Assembly (NCBI GenBank): GCA_964430265.1
Contig: CAYSEI010000001.1
Location: 318,987 to 382,986, forward strand
Direction: 5' to 3'
Source: an uncultured Pseudomonadales bacterium
GTDB lineage: Bacteria > Patescibacteriota > Microgenomatia > UBA1400 > CAYXSR01
Length of the DNA stretch: 64,000 nt
Shown: positions 42,729-64,000 of the stretch, piece after piece
Numbering within the stretch: position 1 is the first letter of the stretch
How the letters are laid out: every line of letters starts with the position of its first letter
Position numbers and translations under genes: made by a program
The notes under the pieces: model-generated
What the model was told of the DNA's origin: nothing
Databases searched by the model: none
What the model saw: the letters and a program-made list of their open reading frames with translations, nothing else

Positions 42729-44636
42729 TTATTTTTCAAATACAACTTCCTGGTCAGTATTGAGTTTAATTTCTTTTTGCTTGCCGTCAAAAATTATCTG
42801 ATGCGGTATTTCTCTTGTTCCCGGTTGTTTCTGCACCAATAATTTGTAGTTATTCTGATTAACAGTATTTTCAGGAAGATAGTATTCAACCACTAACTTG
42901 GCTCTGCCACCATCTCCTCTAAGAGTGAAAAATCCTTCAAACACTTGTTTGTCTAGATCTTGATATGTTTGCGGTTCGGTTTCCGATCCCAAAAATTCAA
43001 TTAATTCACTTCCCTTAGGAACATAAATTCTCACATAATCCCTTAAAATGCCATTTAAGCAGAGACCAGTCTCTCTTTCCAGGTTGCAGTTATCCATTGG
43101 TTCCGGATTGGTATATGTTATTTCCAGTTTCTTTTTTAGTCTGCCGTTATCAAACGAAACTTCCTGTTTAACTTTCTGTTCAACAAAAAAGTTTGATTTA
43201 GCTCCACCAAAATTACTGTTATTAATATGCAGATAATCACCTTCATAGCTGCTAATCCTGCCTGCCGCATTAATCTCTTCAGCCGCTTCCTGTTCGGTTT
43301 CGTCCATATAATACATAAGGAAATGTTTTTCCTGCATGTTTTGTATTGCCAGTTTGAAAAATGCCGGCCAGTGGCTGGTAGGTGCAGTCATGGCTTTTTG
43401 CATGATTGCTTGCATCATTGGGCCTAAAACACCTTTTCTATCCTGTCTTATTCCAGGAATTGGTATGCCAACTAGGTGTTCGAGTTCACAGATTAAATTG
43501 GGGATACCATGACAGCGGTCATCTGGCTCCATGGTAAATTTACCGTACCCCGGAACATCAAGTGGTCCCAATAAGGTAACTAAATCTTTAAGGATTTTAG
43601 TGTCAATAGCAATTATTCCCTGGACTTCCGGTTCTCCAGGAACTTGTTCATAATATTTATTAAATGTATCCATTGACACTTTATAGTCAGGTGAAAGGTT
43701 CATATCCCTTAAATACCAGTTAGGAACAAGTCCTACATTTAAATCTGCACTTAATAAATATCTTTTAATTGGGTCTGGAGCATCTACGTTGCTATTAAAT
43801 TTTTCGTCCAAATGGTATATGTCATTGCTTCCTTCCGCAGTAATTTTGCCCGAGTCAGCTTTTAAAATTGCATAAGCAGTCATAAAACCACCCGTAGCAC
43901 GCAGTTCACCGTCATTTTGGAAAATAACCAAATATTTGCGTTCGTCAGGATATCCCAGCATTTCCGGTAAAGTATGTAATATGGGTTGGAAGTCCTCTAA
44001 ATAGGCTATTGTTTCTTCAAACTGATCTTCAGCCTCCTGTAACCTTTTTCTTATTATTGTTCCTCTAAACTCTTTAGGATATCTATTAGGATCAATTTGC
44101 CCAAATTCTGCTTGTGCTTGGGAAAGTTTTTCAATAGCTTCATCCACATCCGGTGTTATCTTGCCTAAAGTCTCAACAATTTTAACTAATCTTTCTTCAA
44201 CACTGCCTCCAGTAAAAGTTCCTTCTCCCTGAAAGCCCAAAACATCAGCATAAGGATTAATTGCTCCGGTTAACTGAATTCCTGCATCAACACTTAAAAG
44301 ACCAGCCTTAATTGCATGCTTGCCGTCTGTGTAATAGTTTTTAATGTAGGGAACATGTTTTGTCCAGCTTAATGACTGGTAATCTTGTTGAGTTTGTTCA
44401 AGTTCAGTTTTTGTTTTTCTAAGTTCTTCATTTGCTTTCACTAAGTCTTGTGATTTGAATGCAGCATATGCCTGCTGTCCTGCAAGCATTGCTTTTTGCG
44501 CGCTCTGTTTAATTTTATTGACTGATAGAAAAGTGATTACTCCTAAGCTGATTAAAGCAATTAAAAAAACTGCCAGGATGTACCAGCCCTTTTTAATACT
44601 AGCCAATTTTTGTGTGATTGTTTTGAATTTTACCAT
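42729..44636 (-). CDS. Large membrane-anchored extracytoplasmic protein of unknown function (possibly DUF4012-like)
   Basis: N-terminal TM helix, coiled-coil segment and NDGELRATGGFM motif. 635 aa. Confidence 0.5.
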   Translation of the reverse strand: MVKFKTITQKLASIKKGWYILAVFLIALISLGVITFLSVNKIKQSAQKAMLAGQQAYAAFKSQDLVKANEELRKTKTELEQTQQDYQSLSWTKHVPYIKNYYTDGKHAIKAGLLSVDAGIQLTGAINPYADVLGFQGEGTFTGGSVEERLVKIVETLGKITPDVDEAIEKLSQAQAEFGQIDPNRYPKEFRGTIIRKRLQEAEDQFEETIAYLEDFQPILHTLPEMLGYPDERKYLVIFQNDGELRATGGFMTAYAILKADSGKITAEGSNDIYHLDEKFNSNVDAPDPIKRYLLSADLNVGLVPNWYLRDMNLSPDYKVSMDTFNKYYEQVPGEPEVQGIIAIDTKILKDLVTLLGPLDVPGYGKFTMEPDDRCHGIPNLICELEHLVGIPIPGIRQDRKGVLGPMMQAIMQKAMTAPTSHWPAFFKLAIQNMQEKHFLMYYMDETEQEAAEEINAAGRISSYEGDYLHINNSNFGGAKSNFFVEQKVKQEVSFDNGRLKKKLEITYTNPEPMDNCNLERETGLCLNGILRDYVRIYVPKGSELIEFLGSETEPQTYQDLDKQVFEGFFTLRGDGGRAKLVVEYYLPENTVNQNNYKLLVQKQPGTREIPHQIIFDGKQKEIKLNTDQEVVFEK

Positions 44637-59808: not shown

Positions 59809-60231
59809 CTATTCCTTAATAAATTGCTCATATATCTGGTATGCAAATTTCTCTAAATCATTCACATCTTCTTTGTAGTCATAAAAAACTCTGTTAAAGT
59901 CAATTTCTTGATATCCATGCACAATAATATTTCTAAAACTACATGCCAAAGCTAGGTTATTAGCAGTTTCTTCTTTGATAAACCCCTTTCTCCCAAGCAA
60001 AATAAATACATTTCTTGCTGTTTCCTGTCTAGGCAGATTATGACTAGCCAAAATATGTGTAGCTATATCTATTGCTGTTTCAACAGCCTGTTGCAAGCGG
60101 AAAGATAATAACTGTTGAGTATCAAGATCTTCAACTAACCCCTCTTCTGTAAAATTCATATCTTTAATCTGTTTAAGATAGTCTTTTAAAATGGCTAGCT
60201 TCTTTTTTAGAAGATCTTTATTTATTTTCAC
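59809..60231 (-). CDS. hepT: HepT-family (DUF86) RNase toxin; start probably GTG at 60229-60231
   Basis: C-terminal FRNIIVHGY matches the Rx4HxY HepT motif. SD AAAGGA 5 nt before the GTG. The track start is a TTG without an SD. Confidence 0.7.
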   Translation of the reverse strand: MKINKDLLKKKLAILKDYLKQIKDMNFTEEGLVEDLDTQQLLSFRLQQAVETAIDIATHILASHNLPRQETARNVFILLGRKGFIKEETANNLALACSFRNIIVHGYQEIDFNRVFYDYKEDVNDLEKFAYQIYEQFIKE

Positions 60232-60649
60232 AGTTGTCCTTTTCAAAAGATTTATCTAAATATTGAGAATAGATATCTCTTAAATGCTGCGTATCATAAT
60301 ATATGTGCATAATTTTTCCTTCGATCGTAGGTCTTAGCTCGGCAGTTTTTGAATAGATGCAATCACCGTTTTTAATGATTTCAAACAAAAATATCGGCGG
60401 GCTTTTATAGTCAATAATTGACAAATCTAATTCATAGGGTATTTTAATTTCTTTTATTAATTTTTTTACAAATTCTCTTTTAGAAAATTCATCCTTTTTA
60501 TTGACAAATATTGCTAGATCAAGATCACTATCTGCAACAGCATATTCTCCTGCTTGCGAACCAAATAAATATACGGCCAACACTTTTTTATTGGATTTAA
60601 ATATTTGATTTAACTGGTTTTGTAATTCTTCTATTAACTGATTTTTCAT
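60218..60649 (-). CDS. mntA: MntA-family minimal nucleotidyltransferase antitoxin
   Basis: LFGSQAGEYAVADSDLDLAIFV matches the GS...DxD nucleotidyltransferase motif. It overlaps hepT by 14-29 nt. Confidence 0.7.
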   Translation of the reverse strand: MKNQLIEELQNQLNQIFKSNKKVLAVYLFGSQAGEYAVADSDLDLAIFVNKKDEFSKREFVKKLIKEIKIPYELDLSIIDYKSPPIFLFEIIKNGDCIYSKTAELRPTIEGKIMHIYYDTQHLRDIYSQYLDKSFEKDNCENK

Positions 60650-61580: not shown

Positions 61581-61689
61581 TATATGTATTTTAGCAGAAT
61601 GAGGTAAGAGAAGAAAATATCTGTATATAGGTAAACTATAGTCCGAATGGTACTTACACTAGCAGCTATGATTTTGACCAATGTCTTTC

Positions 61690-61723
61690 TTGACTTATTA
61701 TCTGACATCCGATATCATATATC
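61690..61723 (+). promoter_or_regulatory. vapB promoter (TTGACT-N17-TATCAT) overlapping the palindrome GATATcatATATC
   Basis: TTGACT at 61690-61695, TATCAT at 61713-61718. The inverted repeat at 61711-61723 overlaps the -10 element, consistent with autoregulation. Confidence 0.45.
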
Positions 61724-61746
61724 TGATATTAAGTTTACACACTAAA

Positions 61747-62013
61747 ATGAAAGCAACAATAAATATCCGTCCAAGAAGACAAGTTACTTTACCCAAAGAA
61801 ATCCTTGAAGAATTATCCCTTTCTGTCGGAGATAAAATTCAAATAGAAGTAAAAAACAATAAATTAATAGGTAAACCTATTATCGATTATACATTAGATA
61901 ATATTGAAACTATTCAAAACGTCCTCCAAGATGCTGATATTTCTGAAAAAGAACTTCAAGAAAGCGGGAAGAAAATACGCGAAAAACTTGTAAAAGAAAA
62001 ATATGAAAAGTAA
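61747..62013 (+). CDS. vapB: AbrB/MazE-fold antitoxin (VapB-like); start moved to ATG at 61747
   Basis: MKATINIRPRRQVTLPKEILEEL is a SpoVT/AbrB swapped-hairpin motif. The track N-terminus is a hydrophobic read-through of the promoter. Confidence 0.6.
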   Translation: MKATINIRPRRQVTLPKEILEELSLSVGDKIQIEVKNNKLIGKPIIDYTLDNIETIQNVLQDADISEKELQESGKKIREKLVKEKYEK

Positions 62014-62422
62014 TTTTTTTATTGATTCAAATGTTTGGTTTTCTGTTTTTTATTCAAAAGGAAACTGCTATAAATTAATAAAAAAGCTTTTAGAACACAA
62101 CAAAGAAATTGTAGTTTCAAAATTAGTGATTGAGGAGACATTTAGAAATATATATAAAAAAGTTCCTCAGGCACTCCCAGCACTTAATAATTTCTTTTGT
62201 TCTGCTCCGATCACAATATTAGAAAACCCAGAAAAAAAACAATTAAATAGTAATCTGAAATTGGCAGACAAAAAAGACTTGCCTATTATTTTATCTGCAA
62301 TAAATTACAATTGTGATTATTTAGTAACTAGAAATGTAAAAGATTTTAATTTAAAAAACATTAAGAATAAAATAAAAATATTAACACCACAACAAGCTTT
62401 ATCTTTAAGTTTTGAATCATAA
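62003..62422 (+). CDS. vapC: PIN-domain toxin (VapC-like)
   Basis: FFIDSNVWF N-terminal PIN acidic motif. It overlaps vapB by 11 nt. Confidence 0.65.
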   Translation: MKSNFFIDSNVWFSVFYSKGNCYKLIKKLLEHNKEIVVSKLVIEETFRNIYKKVPQALPALNNFFCSAPITILENPEKKQLNSNLKLADKKDLPIILSAINYNCDYLVTRNVKDFNLKNIKNKIKILTPQQALSLSFES

Positions 62423-62471
62423 ATCAACTTTTTCTCTTTTTTACACTTACAAACTTTCAATCTTGTAACAT

Positions 62472-62499
62472 ATATCTATATTTTTGACCGTATAGATAT
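62472..62499 (+). promoter_or_regulatory. 9-bp perfect inverted repeat ATATCTATA-N10-TATAGATAT upstream of the PP-loop gene
   Basis: Seen directly. TTGACC at 62484-62489 sits inside the spacer. A likely operator. Confidence 0.4.
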
Positions 62500-62519
62500 T
62501 TTTCTGTTAGACTAAATTT

Positions 62520-63380
62520 ATGATATTTAAACGCAATAAAATCAAGTTCAAAAATATTCAGCCCGAACAAAGAAAAAAATATCAAAGCTATTCTTTGGAC
62601 AAAAAAATATCTCTTGCAGAAAAAGTAATTAAAAAAGGGTTGAAAAGATTTAAAGCAAATAATTCTGCTGTTGCCTGGACAGGCGGAAAAGACTCTACTC
62701 TGCTTCTCTGGCTTGTAAATAAAGTTTGTGAAGAAGATAGACTTCAGCTGCCAAAAGTTATGTTTGTTGATGAAGGAGATGTGTTTGATGAGATATTAGA
62801 ATTTGTTCATAAAATCAAACAGGAGTGGAAGCTTGATTTTAATACAGCACATAATAAGGATGTATCTTCAAAAGCAAAAAAAATTGGGGACCTTGTAAAG
62901 GTTAAGGATTTAAATGATAGAAATAAAAAGGAGTTAAAAAGGCTTGGATTTGAAAAAAAGGAATTTCCTTACCTGCCTGAATCATTTGTTGGCAACCATT
63001 TAATGAAAACAGTTGCCACCAATATCTGGATTGAAAAAAATGCTATTAAAGCTTTATTTACCGGTGTGCGCTGGGATGAACAAGAAGCAAGAAGTGAAGA
63101 TGATTTTATCCGTAAAATGGATAATCCTACTCATTTCAGAGTTGAGCCAATACTTCATTTTTTTGAAAAAGATGTTTGGGAGGCAACGCATAAAAATAAA
63201 ATCCCCTATATTTCTTTGTATAAAGATGGCTACCGCTCTTTAGGAGCAAAATCAACCACAAAAAAAACAGGAGATAAACCTGCCTGGGAGCAGAATATGG
63301 AAGAAATAAAAGAGAGGGCTGGAAGACAGCAGGATAAAGAAAAGATCATGCAGCGCTTAAGAGAACTTGGATATATGTAA
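62520..63380 (+). CDS. PAPS-reductase-family PP-loop ATP pyrophosphatase-like protein (no catalytic Cys)
   Basis: SAVAWTGGKDSTLLLWLV (PP-loop), VMFVDEGDVF, GVRWDEQEARSED and LYKDGYRSLGA match the PAPS-reductase/CysD fold. The C-terminal ECG(L/I)H Cys is absent. Confidence 0.65.
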   Translation: MIFKRNKIKFKNIQPEQRKKYQSYSLDKKISLAEKVIKKGLKRFKANNSAVAWTGGKDSTLLLWLVNKVCEEDRLQLPKVMFVDEGDVFDEILEFVHKIKQEWKLDFNTAHNKDVSSKAKKIGDLVKVKDLNDRNKKELKRLGFEKKEFPYLPESFVGNHLMKTVATNIWIEKNAIKALFTGVRWDEQEARSEDDFIRKMDNPTHFRVEPILHFFEKDVWEATHKNKIPYISLYKDGYRSLGAKSTTKKTGDKPAWEQNMEEIKERAGRQQDKEKIMQRLRELGYM

Positions 63381-63432
63381 CTTTTTATTCAAAAACTTTT
63401 AAGTAATAAATGATTAATATATACTTATAGTC

Positions 63433-64000
63433 ATGAAAATACTTGTTACAGGAGCAATCGGTTTTATTGGTACACACCTTTGTAAAGAACTTTTAGATAA
63501 AGGCCATGAGGTTATTGGGATTGATATTATTAAAGGTAATGATTTTCATCCGTTAAGAAAGTTTAACTTCTCTTTTATTCCCGAAACTAATAATTTCAAG
63601 TTTTTTGATCTGAATATTTTAAACCAGGATCTTTTAGAAGAAGTAATAAAACAAGAACAGCCCGACTATATTATCCACACTGCAGCCAAAGCTGGTGTAA
63701 GAACAAGCATTAAATACCCGCTTTTGTATACCAAGACAAATGTTTTAGGTTCGCAAATTGTTTTAGATGCAGTAAGAAAATATTCACCAAAAACAAAACT
63801 CATCCTTTTTTCCACTTCATCCGTTTATGGAATCCAGGATAAAGCACCTTTTGAAGGAACAATGGAACCCAATCCCAGATCCCCCTACTCTACCACCAAA
63901 TATATTATGGAAGAGATTGCCAGGCAGTACAACCGGTTTTATAATTTACCAATTATAATTGTCCGGCCTTTTTCTATTTATGGACCATTAGGACGTCTTG
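63433..64000 (+). CDS. NAD-dependent sugar epimerase/dehydratase (partial, continues beyond window)
   Basis: MKILVTGAIGFIGTHLCKEL Rossmann GxxGxxG. The window ends before the YxxxK motif. It carries a ~35-aa insertion after the first beta-alpha unit. Confidence 0.7.
   Translation, partial: MKILVTGAIGFIGTHLCKELLDKGHEVIGIDIIKGNDFHPLRKFNFSFIPETNNFKFFDLNILNQDLLEEVIKQEQPDYIIHTAAKAGVRTSIKYPLLYTKTNVLGSQIVLDAVRKYSPKTKLILFSTSSVYGIQDKAPFEGTMEPNPRSPYSTTKYIMEEIARQYNRFYNLPIIIVRPFSIYGPLGRL

Follow-up and report, generated by a model that had tools for sequence, protein, structure and literature searches.

The stretch of DNA analysed here (hereafter, the window) covers 64,000 nucleotides of contig CAYSEI010000001.1 (assembly GCA_964430265.1, positions 318,987 to 382,986), from an uncultured bacterium placed by GTDB in the Patescibacteriota, and its GC content is 33.5%. 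Close to its downstream end, at the edge of a large glycan and cell-envelope locus, lies an open reading frame (ORF) for a PP-loop protein of a family that databases annotate only as 'phosphoadenosine phosphosulfate reductase (family protein)', and which, both for the window protein and for its whole family, will be called T (Table 1). The gene stands between a toxin-antitoxin module and a sugar epimerase, as already noticed in a preliminary description of this DNA made from the sequence alone. We give about even chances to the reading that T is a stand-alone, CysN-independent relative of CysD, which would act as an ATP:oxyanion adenylyltransferase and, together with a partner enzyme of the alkaline phosphatase (AP) superfamily, would serve in the modification of surface glycans.

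A PP-loop protein without the reductase cysteine

The Pfam family PAPS_reduct (PF01507) matches residues 50-248 of T with 98.8 bits, against a gathering cut-off of 22.5 (E = 4.7e-28). All the core motifs listed in the preliminary description are present in the protein, namely the canonical PP-loop (TGGKDS, within WTGGKDST at residues 53-60), DEGD (within VDEGD, residues 83-87), GVRWDEQEARSED (residues 182-194) and DGYRSLGA (residues 236-243). The TGGKDST stretch is invariant in an alignment of 31 family sequences, and lines up with SIGKDS of CysD and with NGGKDC of human FAD synthase. The same alignment contains 68 invariant positions, and the window protein keeps 68 out of 68, including E265, R266, G268, R269, G284 and Y285 of the C-terminal tail. 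This tail, ERAGRQQDKEKIMQRLRELGYM, matches that of E. coli CysD (ERQGRVIDRD...KKRQGYF) through to its final residue. By these features, the gene is a normal, intact member of its family.

On the other hand, the catalytic ECGLH motif is absent from the whole protein sequence, and the sole cysteine, C70, is not kept throughout the aligned family, so T is not a reductase. The lysine-rich tails mentioned in the preliminary description are found at both the N- and the C-terminus. The motifs suggest a protein equipped for ATP binding and pyrophosphate (PPi) release, but devoid of anything required for reduction, and the earlier expectation of adenylation or activation of a substrate, instead of the reduction of phosphoadenosine phosphosulfate (PAPS), fits well with the intact PP-loop, the lack of a redox cysteine and the CysD-like alignment described below.

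Structural comparison alone says little about which member of the superfamily is closest. The AlphaFold2 (AF2) model of T, with a mean pLDDT of 92.4 and a pTM of 0.90, gave Foldseek matches with E values from 1e-13 to 1e-8 against FADS, PAPS and adenosine phosphosulfate (APS) reductases, the FMN adenylyltransferase (FMNAT) and CysD, and these scores do not separate the superfamily members from one another. The profile comparison, which had been proposed as a check, offers more detail. When aligned with hhalign, the T family matches E. coli CysD from end to end (residues 30-286 against 13-302, 98.2% probability, E = 6e-14), whereas CysH is matched in the core alone (residues 56-249), and a PADLOC search with T returned no DndC or SspD match at E <= 0.01. 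The family profile ranks the PDB sequences in the order human FAD synthase (3e-20), CysD (1e-15) and APS/PAPS reductases; the match to 8ROM (E = 3.1e-20) is limited to aligned positions 15-101 and 194-238. FAD synthase thus aligns at the N- and C-terminal thirds only, whereas CysD also aligns across the middle H..MKT / R.DE region. Taken together, T looks like a compact CysD-like PP-loop adenylyltransferase.

It is not, however, a CysD orthologue, because its scores lie under the cut-offs of the CysD models (NF003587, 73.8 against 195; NF009214, 50.6 against 413; TIGR02039, 49.5 against 396.6), the inserts of both proteins differ, and no CysN or CysC is encoded nearby. The scores with the NCBIfam CysH models are also below their cut-offs (69.1 against 154 and 58.5 against 165), and no NCBIfam equivalog fits T, the best model being that of a CysD subfamily. 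Searches by tblastn with the E. coli queries revealed no CysN or CysC either in the window, which shows 620 nt downstream of T, or beside T in a sample of 86 non-redundant related loci (designated by L-numbers). The only hit in those loci was a weak GTPase match in L046, outside the 5-kb neighbourhood, and GTP_EFTU does not figure in the families commonly encoded beside T. An ordinary role in sulfate activation, through CysD orthology and an adjacent cysN, is therefore not what the scores and the neighbourhoods point to.

The family is large, widespread and unusually conserved. There are 2023 homologues of T at E <= 1e-3, the best 120 of them (about 274 amino acids) at 52-67% identity, and at least 562 T loci in the species-representative genomes of Bacteria and Archaea. 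Carriers include Aenigmatarchaeota, Archaeoglobales, Hydrothermarchaeota, Heimdallarchaeota, Nitrospirota, Desulfobacterota, Planctomycetota, Spirochaetota, Patescibacteria and Atribacteria. In a shorter sister subfamily, which comprises P0164 and about 57 further representatives with a length of 200-250 amino acids, the insert at residues 113-150 is missing, but the PP-loop, PAW.QD and the C-terminal ER.GR...GY[FM] are retained.

Partner genes and fusions across the family

The neighbourhood analysis, also proposed in the preliminary description, revealed a recurrent partner. Within 5 kb of T, the distance used to define partners, an AP-superfamily homologue (PF01663 or PF00884) occurs in 50 of the 86 related loci and a beta-propeller resembling arylsulfate sulfotransferases (ASST-like) in 16, one or the other being found in 64 loci (74%), and in 32 of the 44 loci with at least 3 kb of sequence on both sides. 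The density of these partners is about eight times higher near T (66 hits in 652 kb) than further out (5 hits in 399 kb). Among the closest relatives examined from the candidate phyla radiation (CPR), which are 58-66% identical to T, all five carry a PF01663 gene in the same glycan locus, either adjoining T or at most about 3.5 kb away, together with glycosyltransferases, flippases, DegT, UDP-glucose dehydrogenase and epimerases.

The gene order varies with the lineage. The phosphodiesterase (PDE) gene is next to T in CPR, and the order is PrsK>T>PDE>PrsR in Nitrospirota, T>XrtA-ATPase>PDE>PrsT in Desulfobacterota, short PDE>T>GalE or glycosyltransferase (GT) in archaea, and T>ASST-like in Planctomycetota, Spirochaetota and Opitutales. 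Overall, the neighbours of T are glycosyltransferases, flippases, DegT aminotransferases, epimerases, PrsK, PrsR, PrsT and the XrtA-associated ATPase, and the contexts of the family are glycan or PEP-CTERM exopolysaccharide (EPS) loci. These neighbourhoods agree with the earlier suggestion of an activating enzyme for a glycan locus. In eight Nitrospirota loci (L009, L036, L041, L044, L052, L058, L072 and L079; for example, L009:7701-13566), the T and PF01663 genes occupy precisely the space between PrsK, the PEP-CTERM system histidine kinase (TIGR02916), and PrsR, its sigma-54 response regulator (TIGR02915), while several other loci show PrsK>T>PrsR with no PDE.

The linkage of T with its partner goes as far as fusion. 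Two loci contain true single-ORF PF01663-T fusions of 757-759 amino acids (L051:8540-10813 and L024:6175-8454), with the PF01663 domain at the N-terminus, each of them followed by a gene for a B12-binding radical SAM protein. About 25 of the 150 best representatives in a library at 50% identity (P0130, P0134, P0146, P0153, P0161 and P0178 among them) are N-terminally extended, and those scanned are Sulfatase/Phosphodiest-T fusions, some with an additional DUF4214. The AP domains show an NPP-like Ser/Thr nucleophile motif (S/T...TG..P..HG) and do not have the C/S-x-P-x-R formylglycine motif of true sulfatases. A different kind of fusion is found in a close relative, P0212 (437 amino acids), which combines an EF-Tu-type GTPase domain of about 200 amino acids with a T-like domain; the latter ends in the same tail and contains YRSIGCWPFT, a motif of the CysD kind. 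This protein looks like a compact CysN-CysD-like fusion, which may bridge the T family and the classical ATP sulfurylase. The C-terminal tail of T is kept in the AP-domain fusions as well as in P0212.

Genes of sulfate activation are rare near T, since among the 86 related loci an ATP sulfurylase (Sat) was found in L078 only and a CysC in none. The L078 operon (L078:7153-10588) has the order T > ASST-like beta-propeller > ATP sulfurylase, and its Sat gene is apparently split into ORFs of 228 and 174 amino acids, by either a frameshift or an assembly error. In this and six other loci of Spirochaetota, Opitutales and some Deltaproteobacteria (L062, L068, L071, L082, L045 and L056), the T>ASST-like pair has genes for TRAP or tripartite tricarboxylate transporters and a D-2-hydroxyacid dehydrogenase in its vicinity, and not EPS genes, which may indicate that the family also occurs in another context, perhaps a catabolic or uptake-linked one.

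The surroundings of the gene in the window

The window shows 62 kb of sequence upstream of T but only 620 nt downstream, and it ends inside the next gene. This gene, for a sugar epimerase, is co-directional with T and begins 53 nt after its end, so that both are probably operon mates transcribed together. Genes of the short-chain dehydrogenase/reductase (SDR) type homologous to this epimerase occur within 1.5 kb of T in five related loci, such as L005 (+143 nt) and L033 (+8 nt). On the upstream side there are the MazE-like antitoxin and the PIN toxin, a pair for which PADLOC gave no match.

Table 1. Position of T, its motifs and other features in the window
Feature	Position	Strand	Remarks
T gene	62520..63380	+	ORF with ATG start, 286 amino acids; predicted CysD-like, CysN-independent PP-loop adenylyltransferase of an uncharacterised family
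PP-loop TGGKDST	62679..62699	+	Residues 54-60; motif for binding of the ATP beta/gamma-phosphate (PPi), as read from the sequence
RWDEQ (R184-Q188)	63069..63083	+	Invariant in the 31-sequence family alignment; aligned with RRDEE of CysD
C-terminal tail ERAGRQQDKEKIMQRLRELGYM	63312..63377	+	Residues 265-286; occupies the place of the reductase ECGLH
Perfect 9-bp inverted repeat ATATCTATA-N10-TATAGATAT	62472..62499	.	Exact match; candidate operator, terminator hairpin or chance
Sigma-70-like match TTGACC-18-TAGACT, TG-extended	62484..62513	+	Weak, 9/12 consensus
MazE-like antitoxin	61681-62013	+	PF04014, E = 5.7e-7; directly on the upstream side of T
PIN toxin	62003-62422	+	PF13470, E = 1.1e-9; immediately upstream of T
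NAD-dependent sugar epimerase/dehydratase, 5' part (189 codons)	63433..64000	+	Pfam Epimerase, E = 1.5e-46; cut by the window end
MNT-type nucleotidyltransferase (Polbeta)	60218-60649	-	Toxin-antitoxin pair with HepT
HepT ribonuclease	59809-60246	-	Toxin-antitoxin pair with MNT
634-aa protein	42729-44636	-	Among envelope genes; DUF4012 is its sole Pfam match

The rest of the window is a bacterial cell-envelope region, almost wholly on the minus strand, with Mur ligases, MurA, a penicillin-binding protein (PBP) transpeptidase, a flippase, numerous glycosyltransferases, and proteins of the PMT_2 and Wzy_C families, the last with one member. With its GC content of 33.5%, the DNA resembles that of a CPR/Patescibacteria genome. 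Between positions 1093 and 61580 all the real-looking ORFs of at least 100 amino acids are on the minus strand, those on the plus strand being nested inside larger minus-strand ORFs, and from the MazE gene to the window end (61681-64000) the coding strand is plus. The region from 1.1 to 61.6 kb is thus an unusually long co-directional envelope block, composed of dcw-like Mur ligases, MurA, PBP, tRNA synthetases and the glycan locus. Within the latter, the MNT/HepT pair is inserted between a PMT_2 glycosyltransferase and a GT2, which makes two toxin-antitoxin modules within 3 kb of T.

The preliminary description also endowed the gene with its own promoter, embedded in a perfect inverted-repeat operator. 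The repeat exists exactly as described, but its regulatory meaning did not stand up to closer analysis. Perfect inverted repeats of at least 9 bp with a loop of 3-20 nt give 31 k-mer hits in the window (about 18 distinct repeats), compared with 18 +/- 5.7, and a maximum of 33, in Markov-1 composition-matched simulations. Since the window count is no higher than the simulations allow, one such repeat in the given 97-bp spacer is only mildly unlikely. The half-site is present in 3 copies against 0.68 expected, but two of the three are the repeat itself. In L087, the sole close relative with a comparable spacer, there is a TTGACC-N17-TATAAT upstream of T and no such inverted repeat. The operator as a sign of dedicated regulation was consequently rejected, the number of repeats being at chance level and the L087 spacer having none, and the repeat is real but uninformative.

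When folded as RNA (window 62462-62512), the repeat forms an all-A/U hairpin of -9.3 kcal/mol (z = -2.6) followed by UUUUU. As this hairpin with its five uridines lies 50 nt beyond the PIN stop codon, it may be a terminator of the toxin-antitoxin operon, a reading at least as plausible as that of an operator; the terminator scan passes over it, because it demands at least three G-C pairs. With regard to the promoter, matches of 9/12 are found 10 times in the region against 11.2 expected from shuffles, and the candidate -10 hexamer stops 7 nt ahead of the ATG of T, which leaves no space for a ribosome-binding site. The promoter claim, like that of the operator, is therefore not above chance.

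Proposed activity, alternatives and relation to known systems

In the activity that we propose, T would bind ATP through the PP-loop and the ER.GR tail, and an oxyanion, either sulfate or the head group of a phosphomonoester, would attack the ATP alpha-phosphate with release of PPi. The product would be an AMP-linked activated compound, that is, APS or an ADP-X donor. In Bacteria and Archaea alike, the family forms a two-part module with the often fused AP-superfamily enzyme (PF01663/PF00884) and its putative Ser/Thr nucleophile, which in some lineages is replaced by the ASST-like beta-propeller. This partner would then take the AMP-linked product and pass its activated anionic group to a cell-surface glycan or an exopolysaccharide. 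What the analysis shows directly is the fold with its motifs, the lack of a redox cysteine, the CysD-like architecture, the linkage and fusion with the partner and the glycan and EPS contexts; the reaction class is deduced from these.

As for the acceptor, sulfate is the candidate that we would name before any other, with chances somewhat below even. It is favoured by the likeness to CysD, the GTPase-fused relative, the weakly ASST-like partners and the single T>ASST-like>Sat operon. In favour of a phosphomonoester, which is only slightly less probable, are the partner's Ser/Thr nucleophile, the similarity to FAD synthase, the conserved insert and the nucleotide-sugar-like layout of some loci. 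Some other acceptor would be the least expected outcome, though one to be kept in mind. More speculatively, T and its AP-superfamily partner may constitute an undescribed route of glycan decoration that dispenses with CysN and PAPS, in which a mini-CysD would make the AMP-linked donor and an AP-fold enzyme would move the anionic group. With the same reserve, the AP-fold enzyme of that route could stand in place of a classical sulfotransferase or a LicD-type transferase, in a distribution spanning CPR, Nitrospirota, Desulfobacterota, Planctomycetota, Spirochaetota, other bacteria and Archaea.

Several observations weigh against the activity proposed for T. The 64-kb window contains no AP-superfamily or ASST-like gene, as judged by tblastn and by three custom hidden Markov models (HMMs; PF01663-type, PF00884-type and ASST-like) run on all six-frame ORFs. 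The preliminary description spoke of an enzyme without its usual partners and had those of DndC and SspD in mind, whereas the usual partner of this family is the AP-superfamily enzyme, and it is this one that is not visible here; it may lie past the window end, or the genome may belong to the quarter of carriers with no nearby partner. Within the 44 well-flanked loci, 12 have no partner within 5 kb, mostly Nitrospirota with the order PrsK>T>PrsR. The synthesis of APS in the absence of CysN is thermodynamically uphill, as is known from ATP sulfurylase. The profile search puts human FAD synthase (3e-20) ahead of CysD (1e-15), and phosphoryl transfer agrees better than sulfuryl transfer with a partner that has a Ser/Thr nucleophile. 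The ASST-likeness is weak, with an E value of 2e-5 to the solved sulfotransferase 9KF4, and L088 has an alanine where the aligned 9KF4 has a histidine, a residue whose catalytic role is not established; because of this weak similarity and the unconserved histidine, the ASST-like partner is not used as strong evidence for sulfate. Finally, no literature was found on the T family or on its pairing with an AP-superfamily gene, no family member has been tested, and the founding paper on PEP-CTERM yielded nothing on T or the pair under the terms PAPS, sulfate and phosphodiesterase. As far as we could find, the conserved pairing of T with an AP-fold enzyme has not been described before.

A sub-variant of the preferred explanation, with phosphate in place of sulfate, is that T performs FMNAT-type chemistry on a non-flavin phosphomonoester and makes an ADP-linked head group or an ADP-sugar, while the AP-superfamily partner forms a covalent phospho-Ser/Thr intermediate and adds a phosphodiester-linked decoration to the glycan, or else is a phosphomutase that feeds T. 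We consider it possible but rather unlikely. The FMNAT domain of human FAD synthase is the best PDB match by both sequence and profile, the partner has the NPP-like nucleophile motif, and AP-superfamily phosphotransferases and mutases with covalent intermediates are well known (LtaS, EptA and iPGM). Moreover, the conserved insert of about 35 amino acids, missing in CysD, suggests a substrate larger than sulfate, and L086 (UDP-glucose dehydrogenase, T, PDE, epimerase) as well as the archaeal loci (PDE, T, GalE, GT) look like a nucleotide-sugar pathway. Nevertheless, the middle region and the C-terminal tail of T are CysD-like rather than FMNAT-like, the GTPase-fused relative resembles CysN-CysD, and we know of no ADP-X donor of this kind for AP-superfamily transferases. 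The simpler idea of a housekeeping FAD synthetase of the eukaryotic type, that is, an FMN adenylyltransferase, is very improbable. Human FAD synthase and the Candida FMNAT are indeed the top PDB matches by sequence, profile and Foldseek, but the alignment is confined to the N- and C-terminal thirds, Foldseek is equally good for PAPS reductases and CysD, and the family is distributed sporadically, in accessory glycan and EPS loci beside AP-superfamily enzymes; many of the carrier phyla normally have the standard bacterial FAD synthetase, RibF.

A signalling pair, in which T would make a small adenylylated nucleotide that regulates EPS, the PF01663 phosphodiesterase would degrade it and, in Nitrospirota, PrsK could sense it, is also improbable, although less so than a housekeeping FAD synthetase. 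Fusions of opposing activities are common among second-messenger enzymes, the PrsK>T>PDE>PrsR order is kept in many Nitrospirota loci, and PrsK contains GAF domains. The family PF01663 includes AtaC, a cytoplasmic c-di-AMP phosphodiesterase (PMC7132281), and human FAD synthase is a two-domain enzyme that likewise couples a second domain to its PAPS-reductase-like FMNAT domain (PMC3546728). However, in CPR bacteria and archaea the pair is found inside glycan biosynthesis operons without regulators, and the ASST-like alternative partner does not fit a signalling role. To our knowledge, there is no candidate signal molecule either.

The other reading in the preliminary description, a defence-type PP-loop enzyme (similar to DndC, SspD or BrxP) that would modify nucleic acids within a defence island, seems hardly credible after the present analysis. 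It could draw on the toxin-antitoxin modules around the gene (MazE/PIN upstream and MNT/HepT), on the pairing of a PAPS-reductase-domain protein, BrxP, with the AP-superfamily protein PglZ in BREX type 4, and on a weak PADLOC match of T to BrxP (E = 2.1e-9, 34 bits), which is limited to the PP-loop region (residues 42-114 against 126-200 of the 779 positions of the model). Against it, T has no DndC or SspD match, the PADLOC search with the partner proteins gave no PglZ or other defence match, and neither the annotated genes of the window nor the annotated neighbourhoods of the related loci included a Dnd or Ssp partner; these neighbourhoods, which consist of glycan and EPS genes, showed no Brx partner either. 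Furthermore, an identity of 50-67% across two domains of life is unlike that of fast-evolving defence genes.

If the glycan-modifying module that we favour is real, its significance would reside mostly at the level of the family and less in this particular locus, where the presumed operator gives no evidence of dedicated regulation. Through it, microbes would have a new means of attaching charged groups, either sulfate or phospho-head groups, to their surface polysaccharides. This would matter most for CPR bacteria and DPANN-like archaea, two groups with poorly understood envelopes and, as a rule, no standard pathway of sulfate activation. It would also provide a function for thousands of proteins misleadingly annotated as 'phosphoadenosine phosphosulfate reductase', and for the fused or adjacent 'type I phosphodiesterase/sulfatase' proteins, including those encoded between PrsK and PrsR.

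In relation to known systems, T has in common with DndC, SspD and BrxP, which belong to DNA phosphorothioation and BREX type 4, a PP-loop ATP pyrophosphatase domain. The PAPS/APS reductases of the CysH type (PDB 1SUR, 2GOY and 2OQ2) share Pfam family and fold with T, but they combine a degenerate PP-loop with the catalytic ECGLH cysteine, whereas in T the PP-loop is intact, the cysteine is absent and the alignment ends before the tail. The eukaryotic FMNAT/FAD synthase (Fad1, FLAD1; PDB 8ROM, 8RON, 3FWK and 2WSI) shares with T the PP-loop, GY[RT]SLG and the ER.GR arginine motif and is, like T by prediction, an adenylyltransferase and not a reductase. It works in flavin metabolism, and the second domain of the human enzyme has hydrolase activity, whereas the T family sits in a glycan and EPS context. 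CysD (TIGR02039 / NF003587; PDB 1ZUN) is the small subunit of CysDN, an ATP sulfurylase regulated by GTP. T has in common with it the fold, a PP-loop of canonical type, H..MKT and R.DE in the middle region and the ER.GR...GY[FM] tail, and the predicted chemistry would be the same, with an oxyanion attacking the ATP alpha-phosphate and PPi leaving. Both proteins differ in that CysD has an insert of about 50 amino acids between PLY and FRTLGC that T does not have, whereas the insert at residues 113-150 is specific to T. They also differ in their company: CysD is the partner of CysN in sulfur assimilation, whereas T is accompanied by an AP-superfamily enzyme in glycan loci.

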